Shown here in pieces: positions 5,802 through 60,600 of a DNA stretch of 64,000 bases. Under the pieces are notes generated by a model. The model saw only the letters and a program-made list of their open reading frames with translations, searched no databases and had not been told where the DNA came from. Origin of the DNA: Dehalococcoidia bacterium (GTDB lineage: Bacteria; Chloroflexota; Dehalococcoidia; Bin125). Where the stretch lies: contig OZ241913.1 in NCBI GenBank assembly GCA_965203775.1, forward strand, positions 2,522,366 through 2,586,365. Direction: 5' to 3'. Made by a program: the position numbers and the translations under genes. The first letter of the stretch is position 1. Every line of letters starts with the position of its first letter.

Positions 5802-6908
5802 GCTTCCTCCTCCGCGCCGATCCGCGTTTGCAGCCAGGCCCGCAGCAGCGGATCAATCTCGCCGTCCAGCACGCTCTCCGTGTCCGACGTTTCGTAGCCG
5901 CTGCGCAGGTCCTTGACCATCCGGTACGGCTGGAGCACGTAGCTGCGAATTTGATTGCCCCAACCGGCGTCGAGCTGCTCGCCGCGCATCTTGCGCCGCT
6001 CAGCCTCATGCTTCTCCTGGCGGATATGCAGCAGCCGCGACTTCAACACCTTCATCGCGCTGTCGCGGTTGCGCCGCAGCGACCGCTCATTCTGGCAGGA
6101 GACCACCATGTTCGTGGGCAGATGCGTAATCCGCACCGCCGTCGCGTTCTTCTGCACGTTCTGCCCGCCGTGCCCCGACGCGCGGTAAACATCCACTTTG
6201 AGTTCGTCCGGGTTCAGCTCGATGTCGTCCATCGCCTCCGCTTCCGGCAGCACGTCGACCTTGGCGAACGAGGTGTGGCGCGAGTGCTGCTGATCGAACG
6301 GCGAGATGCGCACCAGGCGATGCACCCCGTGCTCCGAGCGCAGCCAGCCATAGGCCGAGTCGCCCTTGATCTCCAGCGTCGCCGACTTAATCCCCGCCTC
6401 TTCCCCCTCTACTCGGCTGACCAGTTCGACGGCGAACTCGGAGCGCTCGCCCCAGCGCAGATACATCCGCTCCAGCATCTCCGCCCAATCCTGCGACTCC
6501 GTGCCGCCCACGCCGGGAAAAATCTCGACGATCGCGTTGCGCTCATCGTAAGGGCCCGACAGCGCCAGCTGAAACGACTGCTCCTCGAGCTGCGCGGCGA
6601 TCGCCTGCGTCTCCTGCTCCAGCTCCGCCGCCATCGCCTGATCGTCGTCCGCCGCCGCCAGCTCGACCAGCTCCACCGCCTCGTCTAGGCGGCGCTCCAG
6701 ACCGCGCCAGACCTCAAGCGTCCGCTGCCGCGCCGCCAGACGCCTCATCTTGGCCCGCGCGCGTTCGGCGTCGTCCCAAAACGCCGGGGACGCGGACTCC
6801 CGCTCCAGCGCGGCCGACTCCCGCTCCAGCGCCGGCAGGTCAAAGACGCTCCAGCGTGTCGCTCAGCCGCGCGCCCAACTCCGTCAACTCGCTCTGCAGG
6901 TCGTCCAT
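5798..6908 (-). CDS. prfB: Peptide chain release factor 2, with programmed +1 frameshift
   Basis: GGQ and SPF motifs, GWGNQIRSYV; ATG at 6908 (AGGAG SD) reads MDDLQSELTELGARLSDTLERL then CTT TGA C and continues in the +1 frame. Confidence 0.95.
6839..6852 (-). promoter_or_regulatory. prfB autoregulatory +1 frameshift site (GGAG-CGT-CTT-TGA-C)
   Basis: Canonical CTTTGAC slippery stop with SD-like GGAG 3 nt upstream. Confidence 0.9.
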
Positions 6909-6993
6909 CGTTGCCCGTCTCCTCAACGCTCATCAGAGTACCAGCGGCCTTGGGATCGTGCCCACAATTTCGCCATACCCGCGCCAGAGAGAT

Positions 6994-7327
6994 CCGTCAT
7001 TCCTGCGCAGGCAGGAAACCCAGCTGGCCTCCAGCACCGCGATGCCGCGACGACTCACCCAAGCCACTCCGCGCCGCCGCCGAGCCTCGCTTACTGCCTG
7101 CATTCCTGCGCAGGCAGGAATGACGGAGGGGGTGCAGGAATGACGGGAGAGCGCGGGTCCGACGGAGGGGGTGCAGGAATGACGGGAGAGCACGGGTCCG
7201 ACGGAGGTACGGCATGGGTGATCGGGGCGCGGTACGACGGAGGTGCGGCATGGGGTGATCGGGGCGCGGTACGACGGGCGGCGGCGGCTCGTGGCATTCC
7301 ACCCCCCACCTAACCTCCCCCCTGGAA
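6994..7327. repeat. Mosaic repeat cluster: repeat A palindromes, short tandem units, left half of a repeat-B hairpin
   Basis: CGTCATTCCTGCGCAGGCAGGAA at ~6995, CATTCCTGCGCAGGCAGGAATGACG at ~7101; CCCCCCACCTAACCTCCCCCC-TGGAA directly before the IS. Confidence 0.85.
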
Positions 7328-8515
7328 GAGACCTTTGCACAACTCTGGGGGATCGGCGATTCTTGTGGGGAACGCGGTGGGTTGGACGCGAAAGGGGTGC
7401 GGCATGGAGCGTGAGCGCAGGCAGGGGTCGTTCGGCGAGGCGCAGATACCGGAGCGTCGCGGGCGCAACGCGCAGTTGGAGGCGATCCACGCGGCGATTG
7501 ATTGGACGCGCTTCGCGCGGCTGCTGGCCGGGCTGCACGGCTCGCGGATGGGCCGCAAGGCCTACCCGGCGCTGGTCATGCTCAAAATCTGTCTGCTGCA
7601 GCAGTGGCACGACCTGTCCGATCCGGCGATGGAGGACATGCTCTGGGAGCGCGCCTCGTTCTGCCGCTTCGCGGGGCTGAGCCTCTGCGAGGAGATTCCC
7701 GATCACTCCACGATCAGCCGCTACCGCGCGCTGTTCGCGCAGCGCGGGCTGGGCGAGGCGCTGCTGCGCGAGTTGGACGAGCAGTTGGAGGCGCAGGGGC
7801 TGTTCATCGAGCCGGGCCGCGCGACGCTGATGGACGCCACGCTGATCGAGGCGCAGGCCTCGCGGCGCCGCTCCAAGTCGGCCCAGGGGCCGACCGACCC
7901 GGACGCCGCCTGGGGCGGCGCCCGCGGGAACGCCTGCTACGGCTACAAGGGCCACGTCGGGGTCGACGCCGACACCCAGTTGATCCGCCGCGGCGTCTTC
8001 ACCCCGGCCAACGTCAACGAGTCGCAGGTCGCCGAGGCGCTGCTGACCGGCGACGAGGCGGCGGTGCACGCCGACCGCGCCTACGACAAGGCCGAGCGGC
8101 GCGCACTGCTGGAGGCGATGCGGATCGACTGCCGCATCCTCAGACGGGCCGACCGCTACCACCCGCTGACGGAGGCGGAGCGCGAACTGAACGCGCTCTG
8201 GGAGCGAACCAGACGCAAGGTCGAGCCGGTCTTCGGCACGTTCAAACGCAGCTACGGCTACCGCACCACGCGCTACTACAGCCTGGAGCGCAACCGCTTC
8301 GAGTTCTACCTCAAATGCCTCGCCTTCAACCTGCGCAAACTCGTGCGGCTGCAGGCCGCGGTCTAAGCCCCGCCGCCGCCGGGCGCAGTGCGCCCCAGCC
8401 GCCCGCGCAGCCCCAAAAACACCCGCCCGAACCCCCCGCGCAAGGCCCCAACCGCGCCATCCCGCGCCCTAAAACGCCCCCAACAACCCCGCCAGCCGAC
8501 TTTTTCAAAGGTCTC
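7328..8515 (+). mobile_element. IS5-family (IS5 subgroup, IS1106-like ends) insertion sequence, copy 1, 1188 bp
   Basis: Terminal IRs GAGACCTTTG.../...CAAAGGTCTC; 5-bp direct repeat TGGAA at 7323-7327 and 8516-8520. Confidence 0.93.
7404..8366 (+). CDS. IS5-family DDE transposase
   Basis: LLQQWHDLSDP, IPDHSTISRYR, MDATLI, YGYKGH, ADRAYD, RRKVEPVFG motifs. Confidence 0.93.
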   Translation: MERERRQGSFGEAQIPERRGRNAQLEAIHAAIDWTRFARLLAGLHGSRMGRKAYPALVMLKICLLQQWHDLSDPAMEDMLWERASFCRFAGLSLCEEIPDHSTISRYRALFAQRGLGEALLRELDEQLEAQGLFIEPGRATLMDATLIEAQASRRRSKSAQGPTDPDAAWGGARGNACYGYKGHVGVDADTQLIRRGVFTPANVNESQVAEALLTGDEAAVHADRAYDKAERRALLEAMRIDCRILRRADRYHPLTEAERELNALWERTRRKVEPVFGTFKRSYGYRTTRYYSLERNRFEFYLKCLAFNLRKLVRLQAAV

Positions 8516-8840
8516 TGGAAGGGGGGAGGGATGAATTGGGGAAGGAGTGGGAGTTGGGCGGGTGGTGGGCGCGGCGGAGCGCGGGGGTGTGGAGGGTCTG
8601 GGTTCCTGCCTGCGCAGGAATGACGGAGAGGGGCGCAGGAATGACGGAGGAGTGCAGGAATGATGGAGGGGGGCGCAGGAATGACGGAGGGGGGCGCAGG
8701 AATGATGGAGGGGGGGCGCAGGAATGATGGAGGGGGGGCGCAGGAATGACGGAGAGGGGCGCAGGAATGATGGAGGGGGGCGCAGGAATGATGGAGGAGG
8801 GCGTAGGAATGACGGAGGGGGGGGCGTAGGAATGACGGAA
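8516..8840. repeat. Right half of repeat B, repeat A, and about 11 tandem ~20-nt units GCAGGAATGA(C/T)GGAGGGGGC
   Basis: Read directly from the sequence. Confidence 0.88.
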
Positions 8841-8855
8841 GTGTGAACGCGCCCG

Positions 8856-9764
8856 CTAGCGCCCGGCGGCCGACATTTGCTGCATCCGCGCGGCGCGCGT
8901 GACATTGTTCAGCAGCATCGCCACCGTCATCGGGCCTACGCCGCCCGGCACCGGCGTGATGAAGCCCGCCCGCTCGCGCACGCTCTCGAAATCCACATCG
9001 CCGACCAGCCGGTAGCCGCGCTTGCGCGACGCATCCTCCACGCGGTTCACGCCCACATCGATCACCACCGCGCCCGGTCGCACCATCTCGCCCGCCACCA
9101 CGTTCGGGCGCCCCGCGGCGACCACCAGAATGTCGGCGCTGCGCGTGTGCGAGGCCAAATCCGTCGTCGAGGTGTGGCAGAGCGTCACCGTGGCGTTCGC
9201 GCCGGTGCGCTTCTGCGCCAGCATCGCCGCCAGCGGCAGCCCGACCAGCCGCGAGCGCCCCAGAATCACCACATGCTTGCCCGCCGGATCGTTGCCGCTG
9301 CGCACCAACAACTGCTGCACGCCGTGCGGCGTCGCCGGCGGAAACCGCTCGCGCCCCTGCAATACCCGCCCCTGATTCTCCGGATGTAGGCCGTCCACAT
9401 CCTTGAGCGGCGAAATCCGTTCGAGCAGCCCGTCGGCGTGCACCCCTTCGGGCAGCGGCAGCTGGACGATGATCCCGTGTATGTCCGGGTTGGCGTTGAG
9501 CGCGTCGATCTGCTCGGCCGCCCGCGCCTCGATCTCGGCTGCGTCGCCCTCCGCGGCAATGCGCGCGATCTGCACGCCGATGCCCGTCTCCGCGCCCGCC
9601 TGCTCCTTGCCCCGCACATAGGAGGCCGAAGCCGGATTGTCGCCCACCAGCAGTACGCCCAACCGCGGCATCAGTCCGTCGGCCAGCATCCGCTGCGTCT
9701 GCTCGGCCAGCGAGCCGCGAATCCCCGCCGCAATCTGCGCCCCGTCGATGATCTGCGCCGCCAT
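8856..9764 (-). CDS. folD: Bifunctional methylene-THF dehydrogenase/cyclohydrolase
   Basis: KDVDGLHP, GRSRLVGLP, DVGVNR, TPVPGGVGPMTVAML. Confidence 0.96.
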   Translation of the reverse strand: MAAQIIDGAQIAAGIRGSLAEQTQRMLADGLMPRLGVLLVGDNPASASYVRGKEQAGAETGIGVQIARIAAEGDAAEIEARAAEQIDALNANPDIHGIIVQLPLPEGVHADGLLERISPLKDVDGLHPENQGRVLQGRERFPPATPHGVQQLLVRSGNDPAGKHVVILGRSRLVGLPLAAMLAQKRTGANATVTLCHTSTTDLASHTRSADILVVAAGRPNVVAGEMVRPGAVVIDVGVNRVEDASRKRGYRLVGDVDFESVRERAGFITPVPGGVGPMTVAMLLNNVTRAARMQQMSAAGR

Positions 9765-9854
9765 CCCCCAAGCCTACGCCCACCCCCCAATCCACGCAGC
9801 CAACCCGCTCGCTCTGGTCCCTCCAAGTCATCCCTCCCCCTTGCCAGTGGGGAG

Positions 9855-14629: not shown

Positions 14630-15162
14630 GGTTCCTGCCTGCGCAGGAATGACGGAGGGGGCGCAGGAATGACGGAGGGGGCGCAGGAGTGGCGGAGGGG
14701 GCGTAGGAGTGACGGTGGGGGAGAGGTGGGGTGATCGGTGTGCGGCAAGACCGGCGGCTGGGTGGACGACTGGAGGTTGGCCGCAACAGCCTTTGTGCGC
14801 ACTCGCGGGCTTCCACCCCCCACCTAACCTCCCCCCTGAGAGGGGGGAGGGATGAATTGGGGAAGGGGGGAGGTGATGTGAGTGGTTCCTGCCTGCGCAG
14901 GAATGACGGAAGGGGGCGCAGGAATGGCGGAGGGGGAGTGGTGGGGTGATCGGTGTGCGGCAAGACCGGCGGCTGGGTGGACGACTGGAGGTTGGCCGCA
15001 ACAGCCTTTGTGCGCACTCGCGGGCTTCCACCCCCCACCTAACCTCCCCCCTGAGAGGGGGGAGGGATGAATTGGGGAGGGGTTGGGTGGTGGGTGGCGG
15101 GCGCGCGCGTGGTTCCTGCCTGCGCAGGAATGACGGAGGGGGGGCGCAGGAATGACGGAGGA
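14630..15162. repeat. Mosaic repeat A/B cluster with a 215-bp tandem duplication
   Basis: GTGATCGGTGTGCGGCAAGACC... at 14731 and 14946, each followed by repeat B (loop TGAGA) and repeat A. Confidence 0.88.
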
Positions 15163-36306: not shown

Positions 36307-36516
36307 CCGTCATTCCTGCGCAGGCAGGAACCTGCCGCGCGCACCAATCCCCCCCAATCCCTCCCCTCATTCCCCAATTCATCCCTCCCCCCTCTCAGGG
36401 GGGAGGTTAGGTGGGGGGTGGAATGCCACGAGCCAGCGCCAGCCGCCCTCCAACACCCCGATCGCCTCCCCCCTCATCCCTCCCCTCATTCCCCAATTCA
36501 TCCCTCCCCCCTTTTA
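36307..36516. repeat. Repeat A plus ~119-bp repeat-B tandem units (left of IS copy 2)
   Basis: Unit start at 36411; next unit is interrupted by the IS. Confidence 0.88.
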
Positions 36517-37704
36517 GAGACCTTTGCACAACTCTGGGGGATCGGCGATTCTTGTGGGGAACGCGGTGGGTTGGACGCGAAAGGGGTGCGGCATGGAGCG
36601 TGAGCGCAGGCAGGGGTCGTTCGGCGAGGCGCAGATACCGGAGCGGCGCGGGCGCAACGCGCAGTTGGAGGCGATCCACGCGGCGATTGATTGGACGCGC
36701 TTCGCGCGGCTGCTGGCCGGGCTGCACGGCTCGCGGATGGGCCGCAAGGCCTACCCGGCGCTGGTCATGCTCAAAATCTGTCTGCTGCAGCAGTGGCACG
36801 ACCTGTCCGATCCGGCGATGGAGGACATGCTCTGGGAGCGCGCCTCGTTCTGCCGCTTCGCGGGGCTGAGCCTCTGCGAGGAGATTCCCGATCACTCCAC
36901 GATCAGCCGCTACCGCGCGCTGTTCGCGCAGCGCGGGCTGGGCGAGGCGCTGCTGCGCGAGTTGGACGAGCAGTTGGAGGCGCAGGGGCTGTTCATCGAG
37001 CCGGGCCGCGCGACGCTGATGGACGCCACGCTGATCGAGGCGCAGGCCTCGCGGCGCCGCTCCAAGTCGGCCCAGGGGCCGACCGACCCGGACGCCGCCT
37101 GGGGCGGCGCCCGCGGGAACGCCTGCTACGGCTACAAGGGCCACGTCGGGGTCGACGCCGACACCCAGTTGATCCGCCGCGGCGTCTTCACCCCGGCCAA
37201 CGTCAACGAGTCGCAGGTCGCCGAGGCGCTGCTGACCGGCGACGAGGCGGCGGTGCACGCCGACCGCGCCTACGACAAGGCCGAGCGGCGCGCACTGCTG
37301 GAGGCGATGCGGATCGACTGCCGCATCCTCAGACGGGCCGACCGCTACCACCCGCTGACGGAGGCGGAGCGCGAACTGAACGCGCTCTGGGAGCGAACCA
37401 GACGCAAGGTCGAGCCGGTCTTCGGCACGTTCAAACGCAGCTACGGCTACCGCACCACGCGCTACTACAGCCTGGAGCGCAACCGCTTCGAGTTCTACCT
37501 CGAATGCCTCGCCTTCAACCTGCGCAAACTCGTGCGGCTGCAGGCCGCGGTCTAAGCCCCGCCGCCGCCGGGCGCAGTGCGCCCCAGCCGCCCGCGCAGC
37601 CCCAAAAACACCCGCCCGAACCCCCCGCGCAAGGCCCCAACCGCGCCATCCCGCGCCCTAAAACGCCCCCAACAACCCCGCCAGCCGACTTTTTCAAAGG
37701 TCTC
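36517..37704 (+). mobile_element. IS5-family insertion sequence, copy 2, 1188 bp
   Basis: Same IRs as copy 1; 5-bp direct repeat TTTTA at 36512-36516 and 37705-37709; only two substitutions noticed versus copy 1. Confidence 0.93.
36593..37555 (+). CDS. IS5-family DDE transposase
   Basis: Protein identical to copy 1 except K>E near the C-terminus. Confidence 0.93.
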   Translation: MERERRQGSFGEAQIPERRGRNAQLEAIHAAIDWTRFARLLAGLHGSRMGRKAYPALVMLKICLLQQWHDLSDPAMEDMLWERASFCRFAGLSLCEEIPDHSTISRYRALFAQRGLGEALLRELDEQLEAQGLFIEPGRATLMDATLIEAQASRRRSKSAQGPTDPDAAWGGARGNACYGYKGHVGVDADTQLIRRGVFTPANVNESQVAEALLTGDEAAVHADRAYDKAERRALLEAMRIDCRILRRADRYHPLTEAERELNALWERTRRKVEPVFGTFKRSYGYRTTRYYSLERNRFEFYLECLAFNLRKLVRLQAAV

Positions 37705-38228
37705 TTTTAGGGGGGAGCTTAGGTGGGGGGTGGAATGCCACGAGCCAGCGCCAGCCGCCCTCCTACGCCCCGATCGCCCCCCTCCCCCCCATCCCTACCT
37801 ACCTGCCCTCATCCCTGCCCCACCTTCCGTCATTCCTGCGCAGGCAGGAACCCGCTGCGCGCACCAATCCCCCCCAATCCCTCCCCTCATTCCCCAATTC
37901 ATCCCTCCCCCCTTTCAGGGGGGAGGTTAGGTGGGGGGTGAGATGCCGCGAGCCAGCGCCAGCCGCCCTCCAACACCCCGATCGCCTCCCCCCTCATCCC
38001 TCCCCTCATTCCCCAATTCATCCCTCCCCCCTCTCAGGGGGGAGGTTAGGTGGGGGGTGGAATGCCGCGAGCCAGCGCCAGCCGCCCCCCAAACCCCGAT
38101 CGCCTCCCCCCTCATCCCTCCCCTCATTCCCCAATTCATCCCTCCCCCCTTTCAGGGGGGAGGTTAGGTGGGGGGTGGAATGCCACGAGCCAGCGCCAGC
38201 CACTCTCCAAACCCCGATCGCCTCCTCC
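37705..38228. repeat. Repeat A/B mosaic with ~119-bp tandem units
   Basis: GTGGGGGGTG unit starts at 37723, 37931, 38050, 38168. Confidence 0.88.
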
Positions 38229-41928: not shown

Positions 41929-42190
41929 CCCCAATTCATCCCCCCCCCCTTCCAGGGAGGAGGTTAGGTAGGGCCTCACCCTGATCGGCCCGCACGGCTG
42001 GAAATTTATCCCTCCCCCCTTCCAGGAGGAGGTTAGATGGGGCCTCACCCTGATCGGCCCGCACGGCTGGAAATTTATCCCTCCCCCCTTCCAGGAGGAG
42101 GTTAGGTGGGGCTTCACCCTGATCGGCCCGCACGGGCTGGAAATTCATCCCTCCCCCCTTCCAGGGGGGAGGTTAGGTGGGGGGTGGGAC
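41929..42190. repeat. Four repeat-B copies in a 69-70-bp tandem array with near-identical linkers
   Basis: AATT(C/T)ATCCC at 41933, 42003, 42072, 42142; linker CACCCTGATCGGCCCGCACGG repeated three times. Confidence 0.9.
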
Positions 42191-46374: not shown

Positions 46375-47088
46375 CCGTCATTCCCGCGCAGGCCGCTAGC
46401 CGTCATTCCCGCGCAGGCAGGAACGCACGCGCACTCCCAACCCCCGCATCCCCCTCCCCCAATTCATCCCTCCCCCCTTCCAGGGGGGAGGTTAGGTGGG
46501 GGGTGGAACGCCGCGCCACCACCCCTGCCCATGCGTGCCCCGATCACCCCACGCCGCTCCCTCTCCTCCAGCCCTGCGCCTCCTCCGTCATTCCTGCTCC
46601 CGCGCCCCCCACCCGTCATTCCTGCGCAGGCAGGAACGCACGCGCACTCCCAACCCCCGCCTCCCCCCTCCCCCAATTCATCCCTCCCCCCTTCCAGGGG
46701 GGAGGTTAGGTGGGGGGTGGAATGCCGCGAGCCACCCCCGCCCGTGCGCGCCCCGATCACCTCACCCCCCTCCCCCACCCGTCACTCCTGCCCCCCCCCC
46801 CGTCATTCCTGCTCCCGCGCGTCATTCCTCCCCCCTCCGTCATTCCTGCTCCCGCGCCCCCCTCCGTCATTCCTGCGCAGGCAGGAACCGGCAGTAGAAC
46901 CGCACGCGCCCTCCCCTCCCCAATTCATCCCTCCCCCTCCCAGGGGGGAGGTTAGGTGGGGGGTGGAAAGCCGCGCCACCACCGCCCATGCGTGCCCCGA
47001 TCACCCCACCCCCCTCCCTCACCCGTCATTCCTACCCCCACCCGTCATTCCCGCGCCCCCCTCCGTCATTCCTGCGCAGGCAGGAACC
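46375..47088. repeat. Repeat A/B mosaic cluster between convergent genes
   Basis: Three repeat-B copies (~46458, ~46672, ~46918), several repeat A copies, many GTCATTCC half units. Confidence 0.88.
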
Positions 47089-50531: not shown

Positions 50532-50545
50532 TGCGAACAGCCCTA

Positions 50546-51392
50546 GGGCCTGTTCACACTACGGGGGAGAGCGGCTAATCTGGTGGCGGCGACGGGGCGG
50601 CGAGGGCCGCCATGTGCAAAGCACTGACCGAGGCGCAGTACGCGCGGATCGCGCACGTGTTCCCCGTGCAGCGGGGCAATGTCGCGATCCCCAACCTGCA
50701 AGTGCTCAACGCGCTGCTCTACATCGCCGAGCAGGCCTGCAAGTGGCGCGCGCTGCCGGAGCGCTTCGGGCGCTGGCACACGATCTATACGCGGCTCAAC
50801 CGCTGGACCAAGCAGGGCGTGCTGCAGCGGGTCTGGGCGGAACTGCTGCGCGAGCGGCTGGCGGAGGGGGAGTTTCCCGCGGCCGCCTTGGACAGCACGA
50901 TTATCGGCGTGCACCAGCAAGGCGCGGGGGCGCCGAAAAAAGGGGGCCTCAAGCGATTGGGCGCTCGCGCGGCGGGCTGACCACCAAGCTGCACGTCGTC
51001 GCGATCGACGACTACACCCCGCTGGCGCTCTCGCTCACCCCGGGCCAGTGGGGCGACGCGCCCGAAGGCCGCCAACTGCTGGAGCAGTTGGGCGAACAAC
51101 AGGGCGCGCCGGCGCTGCTGATGGATCGCGCCTACGAGGGCGACCCGACCCGCGAGCTCGCCGCCGCGCTGCGCTGGCTCACCGTCGTCCCGCCGATGCC
51201 GCAGCGCAGCGAACCCTGGGAGTACGACCGCGAACTCTACAAAGAACGCAACATCGTCGAGCGGCTGTTCAGCCGGCTCAAGCGCTTCCGACACCTCGCC
51301 ACCCGCTACGACAAGCTCGACGCCCTCTTCCTCGGCTTCATCCACCTCGTCCTGATCTTCGACAACCTCTCCCGCGTAGTGTGAACAGGCCC
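50546..51392 (+). mobile_element. IS5-family (IS427-like subgroup) element, 847 bp
   Basis: 25-bp IRs GGGCCTGTTCACACTACG(G/C)GGGAGA (24/25 match), flanked by TA on both sides; two overlapping ORFs. Confidence 0.9.
50612..51384 (+). CDS. IS5-family transposase, OrfA/OrfB joined by -1 frameshift at AAAAAAGGGGG (50936-50946)
   Basis: OrfA WRALPERFGRWHTIY.R..RW, LDST; OrfB IGRSRGGLTTKLH, DRAY, RNIVERLF..LKRFR..ATRYDK. Confidence 0.88.
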
Positions 51393-51405
51393 TAAGGCCA
51401 GCCCC

Positions 51406-59116: not shown

Positions 59117-60600
59117 CCGTCATTCCTGCGCCCTCATTCCGTCATTCCTGCGCAGGCAGGAACCCGCGCGACCACCCATCGTCGCCACCCCCCCGTCATT
59201 CCTGCACCCCCTTATCCGTCATTCCTACCCCCCTCCCCGTCATTCCTGCGCAGGCAGGAACCCGCGCGACCCCCCACCCCACTTCCCCAACGCACCAGGC
59301 AACTCCCCAAGAAAATTCATCCCTCCCCCCTTTTAGGGGGGAGGCTAGGTGGGGGGTGGGAGGCACCGAGCGACCCACCAGCCGTCTTCCGTCACCCCCC
59401 CTCCCCCCCCGTTCCTGCCTGCGCAGGAATGACGGGGGAGGAGCCCGCCATTCCTGCACCCCCCTACCGTCATTCCTGCGCAGGCAGGAACCCGCGCACC
59501 CAATCCGTCATTCCTGCGCCCCTTTTCCGTCGTTCCTGCGCAGGCAGGAACCTACGCACCCCCCCACCCCACTTCCCCAACGCACCAAGCAACTCCCCCA
59601 AGAAAATTCATCCCTCCCCCCTTTTAGGGGGGAGGCTAGGTGGGGGGTGGGAGGCGCCGAGCGTCCACCAGCCGCCCTCCGTCACCCCCCACCGCCACCC
59701 CGCCGTTCCTGCCTGCGCAGGAATGACGGGGGAGGAGCCCGTCATTCCTGCGCCCCTCATCGTCATTCCTGCGCAGGCAGGAACCCGCGCGACCCCCCAC
59801 CCCACTTCCCCAACACACCAAACAACTCCCCCAAGAAAATTCATCCCTCCCCCCTTCCAGGGGGGAGGCTAGGTGGGGGGTGGGAGGCACCGAGCGTCCA
59901 CCAGCCGTCTTCCGTCACCCCCCCCCTCCCCCCGTTCCTGCCTACGCAGGAATGACGGAGAGGGGACGCAGGAATGGGGAGGCGAGATGCGCTGCCGCGG
60001 CTGGCGGCAGCGCGTAGGCGATTGAGGCGCGAACGATCGCTGGCAGTCGCTCGGGGCACCGCACCCCCCACCTAGCCTCCCCCCTAAAAGGGGGGAGGGA
60101 TGAATTGGGGAAAGGGGTAGGGGGGATGGGATATTGCGAATGGGCGCACTGATTGCGCCGTGCTCCGCCGACCTCCCAAGGCGTGTTCACAACTCCGTTG
60201 TTCCCACCCCCCCTCTCTCCCCGCCATTCCTGCGCCCCCTTATCCGTCATTCCTGCGTAGGCAGGAACCCGCGCGACCTCCACCGTCGCCACCCCCTCCC
60301 CCGTCATTCCTGCGCCCCCTTATCCGTCATTCCTGCGCAGGCAGGAACCCGCGCACCCAATCCGCCTTTCCTGCACCCCCTTATCCGTCATTCCTGCGCA
60401 GGCAGGAACCCGCGCACCCCCCCACCCCACTTCCCCAACGCACCAAGCAACTCCCCCAAGAAAATTCATCCCTCCCCCCTTTTAGGGGGGAGGCTAGGTG
60501 GGGGGTGGGAGGCGCCGAGCGTCCACCAGCCGCCCTCCGTCACCCCCCCGTTCCTGCCTGCGCAGGAATGACGGAACGCGCCGCAGGTTCCTGCCTGCGC
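59117..60600. repeat. 1.5-kb mosaic array with four A>-B-<A composite units and one inverted B
   Basis: Composites at ~59238-59434, 59528-59728, 59761-59957, 60386-60573; inverted B at ~60064-60110. Confidence 0.9.

Follow-up and report, generated by a model that had tools for sequence, protein, structure and literature searches.

IS5-family insertion sequences at the dyad axis of a REP-like palindrome in a Dehalococcoidia genome

Why do both copies of a 1188-bp insertion sequence (IS) in one 64,000-nucleotide stretch of a Dehalococcoidia bacterium genome (contig OZ241913.1, positions 2,522,366 to 2,586,365; hereafter the window) sit exactly in the loop of the same dispersed palindrome? A first-pass annotation, made from the letters of the window, had proposed that the transposase of this element, which we call IS-1, recognizes the stem of the palindrome, repeat B, and uses the many copies of the repeat as landing pads. 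We followed IS-1 and repeat B through the whole genome, a single 3.42-Mb contig of 68.6% G+C that is 95.8% complete, and through related elements in other genomes. The pattern indicates that IS-1 is very probably an active IS5-family IS whose DDE transposase has near-absolute specificity for the dyad axis of repeat B, which resembles the repetitive extragenic palindromes known as REPs.

Insertion sequences and miniature elements in repeat B

The IS-1 transposase matches the Pfam domains PF01609 (DDE_Tnp_1; 5.4e-26) and PF05598 (DUF772; 8.7e-20) and scores 251.2 bits against the NCBIfam model NF033581 (transpos_IS5_4; cut-off 140), with the IS1182, IS982 and IS4 models each falling below their own cut-offs. 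Residues D144, D224 and E274, as well as R270 and K281, are invariant across seven aligned relatives, and the terminal inverted repeats (GAGACCTTTG/CAAAGGTCTC) match at 10/10 bases, with a partial repeat further in. The model score, the catalytic D/D/E, a length in the range of ~1–1.5 kb and the short inverted repeats make IS-1 a member of the IS5 family. The IS5 subgroup is defined by a 4-bp duplication at a YTAR-like target, and here IS-1 departs from it, as its duplication, 5 bp or possibly 7, falls in the middle of a palindrome of 21 bp; because the IS ends are G...C and the stems are C...G, a 7-bp duplication (C-N5-G) is indistinguishable by sequence from a 5-bp one.

The core of repeat B is CTCCCCCC-TNNNA-GGGGGGAG, 21 bp within a REP-like repeat of ~60 bp. 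Its loops are T-NNN-A in form, so that the hairpin amounts to 9 bp of stem closed by a loop of 3 nt. Exact empty copies with a loop of 5 nt number 524 across the genome; loops of another length occur in only 20, and 165 further copies have one to three stem mismatches. Within the window we counted 14 exact empty copies and two occupied ones, fewer than the ~20 given by the first-pass annotation. Like a REP, repeat B is a short, GC-rich, imperfect palindrome with hundreds of extragenic copies, its intergenic location having been tested crudely across the genome, where 87% of the sequence lies in stop-free frames of at least 300 codons and an open-frame test is correspondingly weak. A search of this 95.8% complete genome for a Y1 or REP-associated tyrosine transposase (RAYT; PF01797) gave 0 matches, and repeat B is REP-like, yet no typical RAYT-linked REP. 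Neighboring copies within 600 bp (n=203), with the two orientations written A and B, form 86 AA, 52 BB, 50 BA and 15 AB pairs, so that arrays are mostly same-orientation. Separately, we observed that the orientation of repeat B differs between the arcs set by the cumulative GC-skew extremes (A:B 182:59 vs 113:170).

BLAST recovered ten full copies of IS-1 at 98.1–100% identity and one truncated at base 1018, and all 11 lie between an exact CTCCCCCC-N5 and an exact N5-GGGGGGAG, where a random insertion would hit an exact repeat B with a chance of ~1.5e-4 (524 sites in 3.42 Mb). This census, which tabulated every genomic copy with GAGACCTTTG ends as the annotation had suggested, extends what had been read from the window, namely that both of its copies lie inside repeat B, that each duplicates the 5-nt loop, TGGAA at one site and TTTTA at the other, and that the asymmetric outer arms (ccaccccccacctaac/ggatgaattgggg) run opposite ways round relative to the IS (coordinates in Table 1). 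Across the genome all copies of IS-1 occupy the same position of repeat B, in both orientations relative to the arms (5 vs 6), while the loop sequence varies, and the stems, rather than the loop or the arms, are therefore the common feature, in agreement with the earlier emphasis on the C6/G6 stem. In the truncated copy (2919069-2920086) bases 1019-1188 are gone and a 5-mer and the G stem follow directly, which places the deletion endpoint exactly at the former IS terminus. Two other IS-1 copies, in the same orientation and 221 bp apart, lie within a tandemly duplicated, repeat-rich stretch (2040600-2043600).

Two further IS5 lineages share the site. IS-2 (ends GCAGACCTTTGCGCAAC; 54–56% amino acid identity to IS-1) occupies the same position of repeat B in 7/7 copies and IS-3 (ends GGAGACTGTTGCGAAAG; 41% amino acid identity) in 2/2, so that 20/20 copies across three lineages show what Tobes and Pareja termed a 'type 1 association'. 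A scan for paired half-sites returned 55 pairs, comprising these 20 ISs, 25 miniature transposable elements with inverted repeats (MITEs) and 10 unrelated or complex cases. The MITEs form three families of 102–107 bp with ends GAGACCTTTG, GCAGACCTTC and GGAGTCTCCT; one has ends in common with IS-1 (GAGACCTTTG) and one with IS-2 (GCAGACCTT), and no full-length parent IS for the GGAGTCTCCT family was found in this genome. They are MITEs in that they are small and non-coding, carry IS terminal inverted repeats (two families) and make a duplication of equal length. A BLAST census blind to the flanks found 35 MITE copies of at least 60 bp, of which 24 have exact C6/G6 flanks, while by eye ~8 of the remainder lie in degenerate palindromes and ~3 elsewhere. 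One off-target MITE has a clean TGGTT/TGGTT duplication at a non-palindromic site, which points to an intrinsic 5-bp stagger on ordinary duplex DNA.

As controls we took three other repeated-element families of the same genome, drawn from Pfam genome searches, since clustering of repeats of at least 500 bp merged families through shared flanking repeats and longest-open-reading-frame calls are unreliable at this GC content. One, an IS of the rve family, has 7 full copies; the other two, an 856-bp element that carries a DDE_Tnp_1 domain and has ends CTAGGGCCTGTTCAC... (window 50543-51398 and 2247055-2247910) and a 1223-bp repeat, have two copies each. All three families lie outside repeat B, which is thus no general sink. 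A second palindrome, repeat A (TTCCTGC-N4-GCAGGAA within ggttcctgcctgcgcaggaatgacgg), is three times as abundant as repeat B (1542 copies, often in arrays) and is used by 0/20 ISs and 0/35 MITEs, which argues that recognition needs the stem sequence and not hairpin shape alone. With the polarity reversed, as GGGGGG-N5-CCCCCC, the pattern is found just twice genome-wide. The annotation had allowed for recognition of the stem either as sequence or as a cruciform; dependence on stem sequence is supported by the unused repeat A. Repeat A also lies near IS-1 copy 1 (window ~7100-7260 and 8590-8700), and the rve-family IS copies adjoin ccgtcattcctgcgc units of repeat A at their left ends.

These counts bear on whether the pattern could arise by random or weakly biased insertion, with purifying selection leaving survivors in harmless repeats. 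The genome is compact, and repeat B lies in intergenic spacers where an insertion should be neutral, as judged from the copy 1 locus and the crude open-frame test. Selection, however, cannot bring 45 independent insertions to one and the same phosphodiester bond within a 21-bp core, with a duplication as long as the loop; moreover, the exact cores sum to ~11 kb, 0.3% of the genome, whereas other repeats and spacers are far larger, repeat A is avoided, and the other IS families do not show the pattern. We consider this explanation highly improbable. Targeting of the repeat would nonetheless let insertions fall in intergenic repeats and rarely strike genes, and the earlier idea of repeat B as an intergenic safe harbour holds for copy 1, which is intergenic (the corresponding spacer is 47–58 bp in relatives), and for the genome as a whole to the extent of the same crude test.

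The half palindromes might instead belong to the element, as extended terminal inverted repeats, with the 524 empty repeats being solo remnants or minimal derivatives. CTCCCCCC and GGGGGGAG are mutually inverted and do extend the IS termini, and in four copies of this genome the 5-mers extend the inverted repeat as well. Against this, the asymmetric arms run on unbroken from the stems in empty copies and face either way relative to the IS, the same flanks surround six element families whose ends differ, and the loops vary and are duplicated. Exact repeat B also occurs in related genomes (209 copies in G001, 84 in G005, 22 in G015, 20 in G007, 8 in G014 and 1 in G002), with none in the other 34 relatives searched and 0 matches to a reversed control pattern in all of them. 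In G001 and G005 we saw only fragments, and no intact ISs, of the IS-1 clade (one G005 fragment is joined to CTCCCCCC-ttcca), and the abundance of repeat B in these two genomes indicates that it is not a product of the IS. An origin of the stems within the element is therefore barely credible.

Palindromes beside related elements

A search with the single IS-1 protein as query found no relatives, and an alignment-based profile scan over one genome per species then found at least 461, of which the best 80, all in Chloroflexota or Dehalococcoidia assemblies, were analyzed. This gave 79 analyzable copies in 25 other Chloroflexota genomes (L064 was dropped for its short flank, and the right end of L091-L093 is probably mis-set), for which we scored perfect stems abutting the IS against random control positions. 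A stem of at least 6 bp abuts the IS in 45/79 copies vs 64/3950 control positions, and one of at least 9 bp in 28/79 vs 3/3950. Flank composition favours C from -11 to -6 and G from +6 to +12; when the core ends are placed at GAGACC/GGTCTC, the direct repeat is 5 bp in 20 copies, 6 bp in 16 and absent in 28, and in 8/79 relatives (~10%) the flanks are reverse complements over at least 7 bases.

The sites differ from host to host. Within the same genus, the G003 relative, at 47% identity, has 4/4 copies in CTCCCCC(C)-NNN-GGGGGAG and the G002 relative 1/1 in a similar site; the G016 relative lies in CCCTCTCCC-TCT-GGGAGAGGG in 3/3 copies, and the G029 relative in TTCCCGC-GAAA-GCGGGAA in 3/3. In the three hosts checked the target palindromes are themselves multi-copy (55 and 117, 23, and 87 copies). 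Three further relatives are on alphaproteobacterial plasmids: one of Rhizobium sp. Kim5 (L113; NZ_CP021126.1 27801-29030; 41% identity) lies in TTCTCCCC-GAC-GGGGAGAA between two ABC-transporter genes, one on an Azospirillum plasmid lies in CAGCC-ATTCC-GGCTG, and one on a Mesorhizobium plasmid lies in no palindrome. The Rhizobium insertion shows that the habit reaches beyond Chloroflexota.

Other IS5 elements of the same genus (35–37% identity; genomes G004 and G002) make plain 4-bp duplications in 5/5 copies (TTAG, CTAG, CAAG, CTAG and CTAA). In a phylogenetic tree these elements split at 100/100 support from a 34-row clade that holds every hairpin-flanked element; the rows of the tree were hand-picked, one per genome and usually whichever copy showed its stem best, and its labels are therefore no unbiased sample (L048 was dropped and L077 replaced by L076). 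No ISfinder name appears among the best 120 of 979 homologues. From the flanks and the tree together, palindrome targeting appears to be a property of this whole clade of IS5 transposases.

Loop duplication, flipped loops and the form of the target

Identical 5-mers flank 22/25 MITEs and 11/20 ISs, where a fraction of 0.177 would be expected for random empty loops (binomial p 4e-14 and 2e-4, respectively), and this excess indicates that the loop is truly duplicated on insertion. In empty sites the orientation of the loop relative to the arms is strongly biased (TGGAA 248 vs TTCCA 17; TAAAA 118 vs TTTTA 7; TGAGA 46 vs TCTCA 2). Equal 5-mers have the orientation normal for their local arms in 10/11 ISs and 20/22 MITEs, with one more MITE (ATCTA) unclassed, and rare loops (ATCTA, TCTCA and TGAGA) are duplicated in place, both of which are consistent with copying from the local target. 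As a separate observation, ~6% of empty repeat-B loops are flipped, resembling small hairpin-loop inversions (window example 42151-42171).

Insertion at the dyad in either orientation, together with the duplicated loop, shows from the sequence that the cuts in the two target strands are symmetric, each where stem meets loop and with five bases between them; the 5-nt loop is thereby duplicated, and each half of the palindrome comes to lie beside one IS end. As either orientation and any loop is accepted, it is the symmetric pair of C-run and G-run that is read, and we propose that a transposase dimer may read this pair as a two-fold symmetric duplex site, in which case the short, symmetric YTAR target known from classical IS5 would here be lengthened.

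Several observations weigh against this account. All of it is inferred from static genomes, and a comparison with related genomes for empty repeat-B sites, which the annotation had proposed as a check, turned up no orthologous empty site at the three IS-1 loci compared (copy 1, 1959690 and 1719320). Among the relatives, 34/79 copies are without a perfect stem of at least 6 bp, and the stems vary by host (CTCCCCCC, CCCTCTCCC, CCCCCG, TTCCCGC), a variety for which one fixed preference of sequence does not account. In the present genome the flanking 5-mers are unequal in 9/20 ISs (Table 1) and 3/25 MITEs, and in 9/9 of these ISs one 5-mer is flipped, lying the wrong way round for the arm next to it (clearly so in 8, the left arm of the ninth having escaped classification). 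In 4/9 of them one 5-mer is the exact reverse complement of the other, a type of flank found in 0/25 MITEs.

Unequal flanks could mean that the elements spread through exchange between repeat-B copies, whether by homologous recombination or by gene conversion, with the IS and its 5-mers moving as a cassette. Two IS-1 copies at different loci indeed share the pair tggaa/tttta and two IS-2 copies the pair tttta/ttcca, the right flank of the IS-1 copy at 2040937 matches, along more than 90 bp, an empty TTTTA site that lies upstream, and the higher frequency of unequal 5-mers in ISs than in MITEs fits a dependence on length. The three MITE families, however, have too little internal homology for such spread, and the normal orientation of equal 5-mers and the rare loops duplicated in place fit duplication at the local target; as a general route we regard it as very doubtful. 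Crossing-over leaves each 5-mer with its own arm and cannot yield flipped ones. We also considered a 240-kb inversion between 1719320 and 1959690 as the source of the reverse-complement flanks and rejected it, as both sides of 1959690 are collinear in three relatives (G005, G001 and G007); GC skew was too noisy to bear on the question. The least strained explanation of the flips is gene conversion between oppositely inserted copies, since the stem is identical either way round and a conversion tract that ends within it can flip a 5-mer. Such conversion also predicts some unequal pairs in which both 5-mers are normal, and 0/9 were seen (p roughly 0.05, by estimate). It is also conceivable, though quite unlikely, that at integration the two strands of the target are each folded on themselves into a hairpin or cruciform, and that flipped 5-mers reflect gap filling on an intra-strand template; the lack of reverse-complement flanks among the 25 MITEs weakens this idea. 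If it were true, a DDE transposase would be targeting DNA structure, with its stem preference drifting with the palindromic repeat of each host.

More broadly, the transposase might recognize a structure, such as an extruded hairpin or cruciform or a deformable bubble, in which the C/G stems matter for stability alone. Consistent with this, the targets of different hosts share palindromic form and insertion at the dyad but not stem sequence, the loop sequence is irrelevant, and gap filling with intra-strand-paired stems could yield both the flipped 5-mers and the reverse-complement flanks of the relatives. The neglect of repeat A speaks against recognition of structure, as do the use of sites with one stem mismatch, the normal 5-bp duplication at a non-palindromic site and the absence of reverse-complement flanks in MITEs, which the same enzymes mobilize. 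A 9-bp stem with a 3-nt loop is also short for cruciform extrusion. Recognition of structure is accordingly unlikely, though credible. Weighing these indirect arguments, we infer that the site is probably read as duplex, give structure a smaller though real share, and leave the remainder to other explanations.

Known systems, compared loci and feature coordinates

Targeting of REPs is itself already known, and the annotation was right to name IS3 and IS110 elements as examples, but its list was incomplete, as Tobes and Pareja (2006) also describe the IS4 element ISRm22, an IS256 element and, more loosely, the IS5 element ISNm1106 (PMC1525189). The closest parallel is ISRm22 of Sinorhizobium meliloti, all copies of which lie in REPs at the palindrome axis in their Table 1 (9/9 + 1/1) and Table 2 (10/10), with 6-bp direct repeats that are imperfect in 3/9 copies, as a result, in the authors' view, of recombination among copies (PMC1525189); it has been assigned to the IS4 subgroup IS4Sa, with conserved target arms noted (PMC2266710). 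ISRm22 resembles IS-1 in its DDE_Tnp_1-type transposase, its position at the REP axis and its short direct repeats, but it belongs to the IS4 family, duplicates 6 bp and is a single lineage in one species, whereas here three lineages and MITEs are involved and the habit is clade-wide. A tblastn search with the Rhizobium relative gave no Sinorhizobium record at E<=1e-60, and hence no close kinship to ISRm22 was seen. Looser adjacency to REPs is reported for ISRm5 (IS256) and ISNm1106 (IS5; 4/7 and 7/14 copies) (PMC1525189).

The IS3-family elements IS1397 and ISKpn1 insert specifically in REP/PU palindromes, and the experiments cited credit the transposase (PMC1525189). IS-1 differs from them, as they have a two-ORF (open reading frame), frameshifted transposase and RAYT-associated REP targets, and no Y1 transposase was found here. 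Both insert in the loop with a duplication of 3–4 bp. The IS110-family elements IS621, ISPpu9, ISPpu10 and ISPa11 have all copies in REPs at one fixed position (PMC1525189, PMC12288879), and the DEDD recombinase of that family is guided by a bridge or seek RNA (PMC11208160, PMC11187229). IS-1, in contrast, has a DDE transposase and makes a duplication. The classical IS5 group (IS5 and the G004/G002 elements) is like IS-1 in combining DUF772 with DDE_Tnp_1 in one ~320-aa open reading frame, in its G-starting inverted repeats and in its two-fold symmetric target; the G004/G002 elements are unlike it in their 4-bp duplications outside any palindrome, their sequence divergence and their separate branch.

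A literature search found no strict dyad-axis or palindrome-loop targeting by an IS5-family element and none in Chloroflexota, with most subscription journals and ISfinder outside its coverage. What is new is the IS5 family, the clade-wide spread, the varied host palindromes and the fact that three IS lineages and as many MITE families all use one site. The finding indicates that strict, position-exact palindrome targeting has arisen within one of the largest IS families and is heritable across a Chloroflexota clade, offering a natural experiment in how DDE target choice evolves, with one fold serving targets as short as a YTAR site of 4 bp and as long as a palindrome of 21 bp. With ~500 free sites, a shared intergenic pad may be the reason that a 3.4-Mb genome accommodates three IS lineages beside three MITE families. 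Split palindromes could serve as a quick annotation marker for these elements, and if specificity rests in the transposase alone, the system could be turned into a simple tool that inserts at a defined short site by means of protein only.

At the copy 1 locus the same flanking genes are 47–58 bp apart in five relatives (G007, G008, G004, G002 and G003), whereas the spacer is 1816 bp here (repeats and IS; 7009-8824) and 517 bp of unrelated repeats in G005, which indicates rapid turnover of intergenic repeat content. At 1959690 the spacers of relatives are unrelated, and at 1719320 an orthologue was found for the left flank only. The coordinates of the elements and of repeat B are collected in Table 1.

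Table 1. Copies of IS-1, occupied and empty repeat B in the window, and selected elements elsewhere in the genome
Feature	Position	Strand	Basis
IS-1 copy 1, IS5-family insertion sequence, 1188 bp	7328..8515	+	BLAST, terminal inverted repeats
IS-1 transposase gene, 320 aa, DUF772 + DDE_Tnp_1	7404..8366	+	Pfam, NCBIfam
Left outer arm of repeat B, copy 1 (ccaccccccacctaac)	7299..7314	+	sequence; kept in 524-copy census
5' stem CTCCCCCC of split repeat B, copy 1	7315..7322	+	sequence
Left TGGAA, duplicated loop (target-site duplication), copy 1	7323..7327	+	sequence
Right TGGAA, duplicated loop, copy 1	8516..8520	+	sequence
3' stem GGGGGGAG of split repeat B, copy 1	8521..8528	+	sequence
Right outer arm of repeat B, copy 1 (ggatgaattgggg)	8529..8541	+	sequence; census
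IS-1 copy 2 (partner), 1188 bp	36517..37704	+	2/1188 bases differ from copy 1
Partner site, stem CTCCCCCC (36504-36511) and left TTTTA (36512-36516); arms opposite way round	36504..36516	+	sequence
Partner site, right TTTTA (37705-37709) and stem GGGGGGAG (37710-37717)	37705..37717	+	sequence
Empty repeat B, loop TGAGA	14829..14849	.	exact match
Empty repeat B, loop TGAGA	15044..15064	.	exact match
Empty repeat B, loop TCTCA, ~100 bp upstream of partner IS	36385..36405	.	exact match
Empty repeat B, loop TTTCA	37905..37925	.	exact match
Empty repeat B, loop TCTCA	38024..38044	.	exact match
Empty repeat B, loop TTTCA	38142..38162	.	exact match
Empty repeat B, loop TTCCA	42151..42171	.	exact match
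Empty repeat B, loop TTCCA	46470..46490	.	exact match
Empty repeat B, loop TTCCA	46684..46704	.	exact match
Empty repeat B, loop TTTTA	59323..59343	.	exact match
Empty repeat B, loop TTTTA	59614..59634	.	exact match
Empty repeat B, loop TTCCA	59847..59867	.	exact match
Empty repeat B, loop TAAAA	60077..60097	.	exact match
Empty repeat B, loop TTTTA	60472..60492	.	exact match
MITE examples outside the window	579367-579468, 1500948-1501050, 363561-363664		half-site scan, BLAST
IS copies with unequal 5-mers	1719320, 1959690, 2040937, 2042345, 1867655, 1925527, 537046, 1066878, 746130		flank comparison

Joints that skip the IS in public sequencing runs (X12, X13, X1 and X3; window 6900-9800) were considered as traces of an empty allele and set aside, as their shorter side is 18–28 letters and fits any empty repeat B. 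As a faint hint at the habitat, contigs at least 99% alike to window 6900-9800 occur in these public runs, two of which are labelled sponge or marine metagenome (X1 and X3), the others being X12 and X13.

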